From the sequence record PX393110.1: a stretch of 64,000 nt of DNA. One strand, given 5' to 3'. This document shows, piece by piece, positions 27,180 through 28,581 of the stretch. The notes under the pieces were generated by a model. It did not search any database and was not told the origin of the DNA. It saw nothing but the letters and a program-made list of their open reading frames with translations. The translations under genes were made by a program, and so were the position numbers. How positions within the stretch are numbered: position 1 is the stretch's first letter; each line of letters opens with the position of its first letter. This DNA comes from a phage.

Positions 27180-27210
27180 TTAACAGCCTTTTAGGTCATC
27201 AAACAGGCGG
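27180..27210 (-). promoter_or_regulatory. class-1 motif copy 6
   Basis: CCGCCTGTTTGATGACCTAAAAGGCTGTTAA, 67 nt before ATG 27112. The BCCT stop lies inside the motif. Confidence 0.55.
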
Positions 27211-28581
27211 AGTTTCCTTAGCCAAGAATACTTTAGGTACAAAGATCTTGAGGAACCCGAATAGAATACACAATACCCCAATCAGTACCGGAACAGCCGA
27301 TACAGCTACCAGAGTCTTCGTTACAGTTACTACGTCGCCACCTGCCCAGTTAAGTGCAGCAGCAACTACACCCATGCTTACAATCCAGAATACACGAGTT
27401 CTAGGAGCGGTCATGGACTCTACCGTAATACCTGCTGAGTCATGACCTGTAATAAAGAACAGGATCACAGACACGAGGGTAATTACCGAGAATATCCATC
27501 CGCCTGGGAAATTAGCCAGAAGCTGGAAGATATCCTGAGCACCATGTTGTAGACCAGCTACACCGAATACGGTAAACCAGACGTTACTGATGATGGTAGG
27601 GAACAGTACACATCCGAGGATCAGTTCGCGAATAGTACGGCCGTAAGAGATACGTGCCACAAACGCTCCGACGAATAATGCCCAACCTACCCAGGCTGCA
27701 TAGTAAGCATAAGGCCAGCTAGCCAGCCATTGCTTCTCTTCAGCAGTACTGCCGATGTTTACTGACATAGGAATAATCTGGAGCAGATAGCTACCAGAAT
27801 AGGTGATGGTCTTCCAGAGGTATTCGAAGAATGTACCACTTACAGCAACGAATGCCATAATAGATAGAGCTACGATTACATTATATCTGGATAACCACTT
27901 AACCCCACGATCGACACCAGTTACGGCACTAAGTACAGTACCCAGAGTCAGGAGCGCGATAATGGTGTAAGGACCAACATCCACTCCCAGGAACTCTTTA
28001 AATCCGGAACTGATCGGGCCTACTGCGTAGACGAACGACAGGGTTAAGCCTATGATGGTAGAGAAGAGTAAGCTTATCGTATTAAGGTTATTCAGAGCTC
28101 GGGACTTGAATAACTGATTAAGCGGACGGTCTTCACCACGTACATGCAGTAAGTACCCGAATGCCACCCCTACGACTGCATAAACTGCCCATGCGTTAAG
28201 TCCCCAGTCAAAGAAGGTAGTTACCATATTCTGACGTTCGGACATACCCTCCTGCTGATGGTACATAGGTTCGAGTACACCATAATAAATCATGGATACA
28301 CCCATACCGGTACTAAACATCATGGAGTAATAGGTAAAGCGATTATATTTCGGAGCACCTTTACCCAGCTTAATGTTACCATGCTTGCTGAATACAAAGA
28401 ATGCCAGGAACGCTAGGAAGATCAGCGAAGACCAGGTAAATATGAATCCATACTGAGATATGAATACAGACTTACTCCAGTCCATTACAGCACCAAACTG
28501 GGTGGGAGCTAACATAATGGCGAGTATGATACCCACCGTTACTAGCACCGTCCCCCAGGTAACTACCTTTGAATCTGACAT
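27199..28581 (-). CDS. BCCT-family (betaine/carnitine/choline-type) transporter
   Basis: Polytopic membrane protein. [41 protein letters not shown] aligns with the BCCT signature region (BetP [41 protein letters not shown]). Confidence 0.8.
   Translation of the reverse strand: [460 protein letters not shown]

Follow-up and report, generated by a model that had tools for sequence, protein, structure and literature searches.

The 64,000-nucleotide stretch of phage DNA analyzed here (PX393110.1; the window) contains a minus-strand open reading frame (ORF) at positions 27199-28581 that encodes a 460-residue transporter of the BCCT family (Pfam PF02028; Transporter Classification 2.A.15). The gene immediately upstream on the same strand (28585..29493) encodes a 302-residue protein with a predicted ATP-grasp fold. 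Both genes lie within a block of replication and thymidine-hypermodification genes, and the conserved coupling of an ATP-grasp gene to a BCCT gene inside such blocks is new. The window shares ~95% identity with Escherichia phage vB_EcoM_IME392 and ~94% with phage EP_H11, and the GenBank records of these phages (MH719082 and OP688485; IME392 and EP_H11) already carry the labels "putative Bcct family transporter" and "high-affinity choline uptake protein". Given this existing annotation, the bare observation of a BCCT gene, which was the starting point of an original prediction made from the sequence, is correct but not new.

A compact BCCT transporter

Membership of the 460-residue protein in the BCCT family is secure. 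The peptide cited in the original prediction is present in the ORF, which is intact, and the encoded protein matches PF02028 over profile positions 1-481 of 485 (E = 4.3e-92; 309.5 bits compared with a cutoff of 27) and also matches phrog_19848. BetP ranked first among solved structures (E = 2.6e-48), followed by a trimethylamine transporter, BetT, DddT, and CaiT, with CaiT (E = 4e-14) having the weakest overall similarity among solved BCCTs. Residues 9-447 align without a break to BetP chain residues 31-515, which comprise the core of transmembrane helices TM1-TM12, and a crude hydropathy scan found several hydrophobic segments spread over the full length of the protein. The family assignment is thus upheld by a full-length profile match and by the structural alignment. 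BetP-type N-terminal and C-terminal regulatory extensions are missing (460 residues compared with 566 in the N-terminally truncated BetP crystal chain), leaving a compact secondary transporter that consists only of the 12-TM core.

Assignment to a substrate-specific subfamily was less successful, as the protein scored below every curated NCBIfam cutoff, including those for betaine_BCCT NF047988 (242.7 compared with 650), TIGR00842 bcct (235.4 compared with 407.55), BetT (154.7 compared with 695), and CaiT (105.3 compared with 541). These scores mark the protein as a divergent BCCT, for which a betaine, choline, or carnitine label is unsupported by homology.

Residues of the substrate and ion sites were mapped on BetP (structures including PDB 2WIT and 4AIN), with the numbering verified by means of the G153D construct 3P03. 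The cation-pi box is mostly kept, as W126, W131, Y134, W297, and W300 correspond to W189, W194, Y197, W374, and W377 of BetP, and equivalents of BetP F380, T246, T467, and D470 are also retained. The unwound TM3 segment, A-G-M-G-I-G in BetP, is S-T-G-M-G-V-S at residues 90-96 of the phage protein, and the equivalents of G149, M150, and G151 are invariant across the clade of compact BCCTs to which this protein belongs (see below). Throughout the same clade, W373 is replaced by Ala (or Asn/Ser) and W371 by Tyr (or Phe/Glu), with Ala and Tyr in the phage protein; G153 is Ser in most members, including the phage protein; and T250 is Leu or Ile in all members, Leu in the phage protein. The S468-A469 pair of the Na2 site is Gly-His in every phage-group copy and in P0004, which is on a short contig, whereas bacterial members of the clade retain Ser-Ala. 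The Na+-coupling sites are therefore mixed, with T467, T246, and F380 kept and S468, A469, and T250 changed to Gly, His, and Leu. As judged from these residues, a cation-pi site for an onium head group probably remains, in a pocket that appears to have been enlarged or altered in shape, with an uncertain coupling ion.

The changes at S468-A469 and T250 mean that ion coupling may differ from that of BetP, and BCCTs can be ion-independent antiporters, as CaiT is. The phage protein might then be an exporter or antiporter that, in CaiT-like fashion, takes in a solute from outside while releasing a toxic intermediate or a by-product of the pathway, or might act in superinfection exclusion or the timing of lysis. 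However, CaiT-specific substitutions are absent, the residue at the BetP F380 position is Phe rather than the Gln of CaiT, overall similarity to CaiT is the weakest among solved BCCTs, and a role other than transport is hard to reconcile with how strongly the residues of the substrate site are conserved. We regard these alternatives as improbable.

The ATP-grasp partner

The 302-residue protein has no Pfam match even at E <= 10 and no match in PDB sequence and profile searches, and it is ~10-14% identical to any solved structure. Its family is very small, with only 8 clusters among 1.84e9 representatives. An AlphaFold2 model based on a 4-sequence alignment had a predicted local distance difference test score of 36 and became usable after an exhaustive search of the representatives supplied 5 further members. 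In the resulting model, the protein is predicted to adopt an ATP-grasp fold of three domains, in which the Lys and Glu/Asn ligands for Mg-ATP are conserved, making it a probable ATP-dependent carboxylate-amine ligase and a possible kinase. If it were a kinase, this ITPK1/PPIP5K-like protein might phosphorylate an imported choline, carnitine, or inositol-like alcohol, and the phospho-head-group might then be moved onto the modified base or its sugar. We consider this variant quite unlikely. The original prediction had placed the BCCT gene between genes for an ATP-grasp ligase and a sugar deacetylase, and the predicted fold of the 302-residue protein and the PIG-L profile of the other neighbor (see below) bear out both identities.

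ATP-grasp and BCCT form one expression unit

The sequence motif AAAGGCTGTTA occurs in 19 exact copies in the window, all on the minus strand, compared with 0.8 expected. Examples are at 14265, 17866, 21450, 23306, 25442, 27181, 29522, and 30363, with further copies at 33713, 39158, 44365, 45355, 46820, 48052-48899, and 50245. Most copies are intergenic, as is every nearby copy, including both of those that flank the ATP-grasp and BCCT genes. CGCTCTTTT often precedes AAAGGCTGTTA, which sits within or beside hairpins and probably serves as a promoter or regulatory element specific to the phage; between 26 and 31 kb, sigma-70-like sites showed no enrichment. Elsewhere on the minus strand, two ORFs contain RNA polymerase Rpb1/beta'-type domains 1-2 (5330-6898) and 3-5 (8777-10291), respectively, and resemble two parts of one split subunit, from a multisubunit RNA polymerase encoded by the phage. 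This polymerase may be the reader of AAAGGCTGTTA.

One motif copy (29522..29532, minus strand) lies upstream of the ATP-grasp and BCCT genes. Another (27181..27191, minus strand) lies 8 nucleotides past the BCCT stop codon and serves the PIG-L gene rather than the BCCT gene, with a terminator-like GC-rich hairpin and T-run (27137..27163, minus strand) between this motif and the PIG-L start. Only 3 nucleotides separate the ATP-grasp stop codon from the BCCT start, and the BCCT ribosome-binding site (GAGGA) is inside the 3' end of the ATP-grasp gene. From the placement of the motifs and the 3-nucleotide junction, we conclude that ATP-grasp and BCCT constitute a single two-gene expression unit. 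The idea that the transporter gene has its own class-1 motif is therefore not supported, as BCCT lacks a copy of its own. Translation of BCCT is probably coupled to that of the ATP-grasp gene.

The pairing recurs in divergent phage contigs

Exact-protein look-ups provided three further phage-like contigs (L009, L010, and L067). All additional phage contexts are Logan/ENA contigs, and scans of IMG/VR with alignments of the BCCT clade and of the ATP-grasp proteins gave no confirmed relatives. In every phage contig with enough context (window/IME392, L010, L009, and L067), the ATP-grasp gene abuts or overlaps a compact BCCT gene, with a 3-nucleotide gap in window/IME392 and in L010, a 35-nucleotide overlap in L009, and a 1-nucleotide overlap in L067. 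The order in L010 is ATP-grasp (70% identical to the window protein), BCCT (89%), PIG-L, a 342-residue protein, a 359-residue protein, HMUDK, kinase, and thymidylate synthase (TS) homolog. In L009, overlapping genes for ATP-grasp (30%), BCCT (43%), and PIG-L (46%) adjoin genes for topoisomerase II, a kinase, and a TS homolog. L067 lacks PIG-L and has the order kinase, TS homolog, HD protein, primase-like protein, ATP-grasp, and BCCT (42-44%). TS-like and kinase genes are present in the blocks of all four BCCT-bearing contigs, and HMUDK is present in those of the window, L010, and L067.

Downstream of the pair in L067 (5912-14536) are genes for a GT4 glycosyltransferase, a cupin/mannose-P-isomerase-like protein, a 148-residue cytidylyltransferase, the amino-acid:DNA transferase ADDT (E = 3e-8), an inositol-1-phosphate-synthase-like protein, HMUD2, and HMUDK. 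The content of this block suggests a thymidine decoration of the sugar- or polyol-phosphate type.

The most divergent member of the ATP-grasp family (P0108; L068:204-1785) is followed, after a 1-nucleotide gap, by a major facilitator superfamily (MFS) sugar porter (Sugar_tr E = 3e-37; PESPRWL motif) in place of a BCCT. Our strongest case for action of the enzyme on an imported solute is that members of this very rare family pair with a BCCT transporter four times and with an MFS transporter once.

Rarity, ancestry, and selection

Of 50,697 phage records searched by tblastn, 27 had BCCT matches, with IME392, EP_H11, and two Vibrio phages as the only convincing phage genomes. The other 23 records include fragments of 1.5-6.5 kb, "phages" of up to 386 kb, and whole-genome-shotgun contigs with bacterial-style gene names. 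Such records resemble bacterial DNA filed as phage, and raw counts of phage BCCTs from collections of this kind are therefore inflated. With four convincing genomes among all records searched, the predicted rarity of BCCT genes in phages stands.

BCCT homologs split into a small compact clade of 452-473 residues (40-44% identity) and a group of ordinary BCCTs, which a gap in identity sets apart at <=34%. In a neighbor-joining tree calculated from Kimura distances (not maximum likelihood; 100 bootstraps), the compact clade was monophyletic in 100/100 replicates and the phage copies in 87/100, with bacterial P0006 as sister to the phage copies in 100/100. Monophyly of the phage copies within the compact clade argues for one ancient acquisition, after which the gene was kept while diverging to ~42% identity. 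The BCCT gene is under strong purifying selection, with ratios of nonsynonymous to synonymous substitution (dN/dS) of 0.047 compared with IME392 and 0.052 compared with L010 (dS = 1.4 for L010).

Many database matches between BCCTs and "phages" look like bacterial contamination, raising the question of whether the window gene might itself be a contaminant, a misassembly, or a recently captured passenger without function. Multiple results speak against this idea. First, two isolates that were sequenced independently, as well as several metagenomic contigs, have the same gene at the same place. Second, the dN/dS ratio of ~0.05 and the divergence of a monophyletic phage group to ~42% identity are not those of a passenger. 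Third, the GC content of the gene resembles that of its surroundings, and a blastn search of 5,426 complete E. coli genomes found no match to it. The latter result, together with low identity to E. coli BetT and CaiT, led us to reject recent capture from the host. Conservation effectively refutes the passenger explanation, to which we give almost no credence.

Bacterial relatives and a substrate clue

In 7 of 12 bacterial loci of the compact clade, the BCCT gene ends an operon of BKACE, 3HCDH-type, 4HBT thioesterase, and Abhydrolase_3 genes, accompanied by a DJ-1/AraC regulator of the CdhR/GbdR type. Four other loci place the gene among further BCCTs, three of them with a CdhR/GbdR-type regulator, and L003 has neither feature. 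We take the BKACE-3HCDH-4HBT-Abhydrolase_3-BCCT layout to be one for catabolism of L-carnitine and short-chain acylcarnitines, as in the Pseudomonas cdh-hocS locus. This context suggests a carnitine-type substrate for the compact clade.

The catabolic setting also bears on a role in osmoprotection or host physiology, in which compatible solutes would keep the infected cell turgid and active, and adjacency to the ATP-grasp gene would be incidental. Osmoprotection is the default role of most characterized BCCTs, is compatible with the largely intact aromatic box, and is how an algal-virus BCCT has been interpreted (PMC13431477). However, the nearest bacterial relatives of the phage carrier are in catabolic rather than osmostress operons, four lineages retain the tight link to a very rare ATP-grasp enzyme down to ~42% BCCT identity, and one member of the ATP-grasp family pairs with a transporter of a different class. 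Moreover, osmosensing by BetP resides in its C-terminal domain, and the phage protein has neither this extension nor the N-terminal one. E. coli also already owns ProP, ProU, and BetT. We consider osmoprotection an unlikely role.

The surrounding block

The original prediction placed the BCCT gene in a nucleotide/DNA-modification block. This placement is upheld, as the neighborhood is a replication and thymidine-hypermodification block, as shown by the HMUDK, TS-homolog, and replication genes around it. [quoted passage not shown] The order continues with a P-loop kinase, the TS homolog, an HD 5'-deoxynucleotidase-like (YfbR-like) protein, primase-like and helicase proteins, and an A-family DNA polymerase. 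In L009, the gene for topoisomerase II/IV subunit A (9312-11708) holds an intein with an HNH endonuclease domain.

The TS homolog (21480..22553, minus strand; Pfam Thymidylat_synt E = 4.7e-12; phrog_3676 E = 7e-71), a probable dUMP hydroxymethylase, and 5-HMUDK (23362..24333, minus strand; Pfam HMUDK_hel E = 4.8e-35) are encoded together on the same strand as BCCT and 3-6 kb from it. Pfam and PHROG identify the intervening gene (22550..23284, minus strand) as that of a P-loop nucleotide kinase (AAA_28; PHROG thymidylate kinase). The 203-residue PIG-L/LmbE-family metal-dependent deacetylase (26501..27112, minus strand; Pfam PIG-L E = 6.7e-14; 52.9 bits compared with a cutoff of 28.2) has the sequence SPHHDDE, with the H-x-D-D metal motif, near its N-terminus and HQDH near residue 105. 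A PIG-L gene follows BCCT in three of the four phage lineages, with orthologs 46% identical in L009, where it overlaps the BCCT gene, and 76% identical in L010.

Two genes of the block resist assignment. The 359-residue protein (24333..25412, minus strand) has a weak GT-B-like hint (Glyco_trans_1_2 E = 0.017, under the cutoff) and no PDB match. The 344-residue protein (25460..26494, minus strand) contains IIPTY...DDD motifs, has only three homologs together with a paralog in L010, and gave no Pfam or PDB match; we do not claim it as a GT-A glycosyltransferase, a reading that comes from motif inspection alone.

Upstream of the ATP-grasp gene, and with its own copy of AAAGGCTGTTA, is a gene for a 246-residue class-I S-adenosylmethionine methyltransferase-like protein (29595..30335, minus strand; Methyltransf_25/23/31/11 E = 4e-5 to 1e-3, at or below the cutoffs). 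In L010, five other genes stand in its place (3674-7578), encoding a DXD glycosyltransferase-like protein, a paralog of the 344-residue protein, a phosphatidylserine-decarboxylase-like pyruvoyl protein (E = 2e-7), a second ATP-grasp-like protein (weak, E = 0.036), and a 151-residue protein. This replacement indicates that the chemistry of decoration differs between sister phages. Farther away in the window, a 921-residue minus-strand ORF (34385-37150) combines an Mre11-type metallophosphoesterase with a Rad50/SbcC-type ATPase that has a zinc hook, as in a fused SbcCD-like nuclease.

IME392 and EP_H11 are grouped by polymerase with the T-hypermodified phages SP-15, YerA41, and Carin-5 (PMC12686479; bioRxiv 10.1101/2025.03.26.645540). 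Phosphocholine was rejected as an explanation of the 184-Da unit reported for YerA41, as its addition amounts to ~165 Da by our own calculation, and the tblastn search of phage records found no BCCT match in YerA41.

A proposed role for the carrier and its partner

Together, these results lead us to propose, tentatively, that the carrier imports a quaternary-ammonium compound and that the co-expressed ATP-grasp enzyme ligates this solute, or less likely phosphorylates it, for incorporation into a thymidine hypermodification. The direction of transport, the class of substrate, use of the imported solute by the ATP-grasp enzyme, and the end product on DNA are all inferred. During the replication phase, the phage would place a stripped-down BCCT carrier in the host inner membrane, where it would take up a cationic solute from outside, most likely a quaternary-ammonium compound such as those of the carnitine, gamma-butyrobetaine, betaine, or choline type. 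The ATP-grasp enzyme would take this solute as its substrate, activating the carboxylate as an acyl-phosphate and ligating it to an amine or, less likely, phosphorylating the solute. Its product would feed a thymidine-hypermodification pathway in which the TS-like hydroxymethylase leads to 5-hmdU in DNA, on which 5-HMUDK would act before further decoration. PIG-L might plausibly act on an N-acetyl sugar, uncovering the amine that serves as acceptor, or deacylate the imported solute. In a more specific version, which we view as possible but doubtful, ATP-grasp and BCCT (with PIG-L in most lineages) would be an "import-and-attach" module by which environmental carnitine, gamma-butyrobetaine, or betaine is covalently installed on hypermodified thymidine.

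Supply of a substrate for ligation onto the DNA modification had been suggested in the original prediction. This idea gains comparative support from coupling in four lineages, from the fifth family member with another type of transporter, and from a lic-type pathway in Vibrio phages (see below); the identity of the substrate and the link to DNA stay at the level of proposals.

Several observations weigh against the proposal. First, the module is not invariant, as L067 has no PIG-L gene and the short contigs L065 and L066 have a non-transporter gene after the ATP-grasp family member; moreover, HMUDK was not found within the 15 kb of L009, and gene adjacency does not prove a shared substrate. 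Second, with Ala for W373 and Tyr for W371, the pocket is unlike that of every characterized BCCT, and the substrate may be something other than a classical betaine; the phage BCCT is also only 38-40% identical to its relatives in carnitine operons. Third, attempts at family assignment failed for the 344-residue and 359-residue proteins, the would-be suppliers of a sugar acceptor. Fourth, aGPT-Pplase/ADDT (the latter an amino-acid:DNA transferase), the function that displaces the pyrophosphate, was not found among the 39 window ORFs scanned with Pfam. IME392 and EP_H11 are stated to carry aGPT-Pplase (bioRxiv 10.1101/2025.03.26.645540), and the transferase may therefore be encoded outside the window or be one of the unassigned proteins. 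Finally, transport, ligation, and the DNA chemistry of this phage group are proposals drawn from sequence.

The phage DNA hypermodifications known so far draw on metabolites from inside the cell, such as amino acids, polyamines, and nucleotide sugars. If our proposal is correct, then the DNA of some phages is made with an outside compound that they scavenge and on which they depend, and the result would be a permanently cationic, medium-dependent base modification that could explain the resistance of such genomes to sequencing and restriction. For an import-and-attach module, the DNA chemistry of the phage, and hence its restriction resistance and packaging charge, would depend on the surroundings of the host. 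If the DNA link is wrong, there is still a rare and conserved transporter-enzyme pair in virulent phages, although the BCCT gene itself was already annotated in GenBank. An importer wired to a modification enzyme would also add a new subclade of BCCTs, altered in the binding pocket, and a new, very rare family of ATP-grasp enzymes.

Comparison with known systems

BetP, the Na+/glycine betaine symporter of Corynebacterium glutamicum, is ~30% identical to the phage carrier and alignable over the whole 12-TM core. The two proteins share the TM3 G-M-G sequence, most of the aromatic box, and the F380, T246, T467, and D470 positions. They differ in the terminal regulatory domains, which the phage protein lacks, and at W373, W371, G153, T250, and S468-A469.

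The compact bacterial BCCTs, such as P0007 of Zobellella aerophila, are of phage-like size (452-463 residues), belong to the same clade (100/100), and have also lost W373 and W371. The cdh-type bacterial proteins are 38-44% identical to the phage carrier and have Ser-Ala at the Na2 site, where the phage group has Gly-His. The contexts differ as well, being catabolic in bacteria (BKACE, 3HCDH, thioesterase, and a CdhR/GbdR-like regulator) and a DNA-modification block with an ATP-grasp gene in the phages. Nevertheless, there is a parallel in pairing with a deacylating hydrolase, as the bacterial carrier adjoins the esterase Abhydrolase_3 and the phage carrier adjoins the PIG-L deacetylase.

Compared with ATP-grasp enzymes of the Ddl/VanA, LysX/ArgX, RimK, L-amino-acid ligase, PylC, and CPS/biotin-carboxylase types, the 302-residue protein stands apart in having no Pfam or PDB sequence-profile match and in belonging to a family of eight clusters.

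Thymidine hypermodification in phages ViI, M6, SP10, and PhiW-14 has the TS-like dUMP hydroxymethylase and 5-HMUDK in common with the window block and uses intracellular amino acids and polyamines (PMC5889632; PMC8989533). These two papers mention no transporter, ATP-grasp enzyme, deacetylase, or betaine, and the thymidine-hypermodification literature that we searched mentions no transporter, ATP-grasp enzyme, or deacetylase.

An independent parallel comes from Vibrio phages 1.031.O (MG592415; L002:6824-9822) and 150E35-1 (OX241562; L069:2827-5828), which carry a lic-like cassette of adjacent or overlapping genes on one strand. It encodes a fusion of a cytidylyltransferase and a choline/ethanolamine kinase (E = 6e-9 and E = 6e-6), a BCCT transporter (E = 1e-45) with the full Trp box, and LicD. 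The fusion and BCCT genes were deposited as "coil containing" and "TMhelix containing" proteins, and our literature search found no paper describing a Vibrio-phage BCCT/LicD cassette. Its gene content implies a full lic-type route, in which choline would be converted to phosphocholine and CDP-choline and then transferred to an acceptor. The Vibrio BCCT is ~25% identical to the window protein, keeps the W373 equivalent, and has a kinase/cytidylyltransferase and LicD rather than an ATP-grasp enzyme as partners. On the tree it is separate from the phage group, with a branch that is long and lacks support, and it is most likely an independent acquisition. In both systems, a BCCT gene is coupled to genes for enzymes that would activate and transfer an imported solute, with the transporter as supplier of the substrate. 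If the import-and-attach version holds, then the two together would define a broader class of pathways in which phages encode the importer for a building block that comes from outside.

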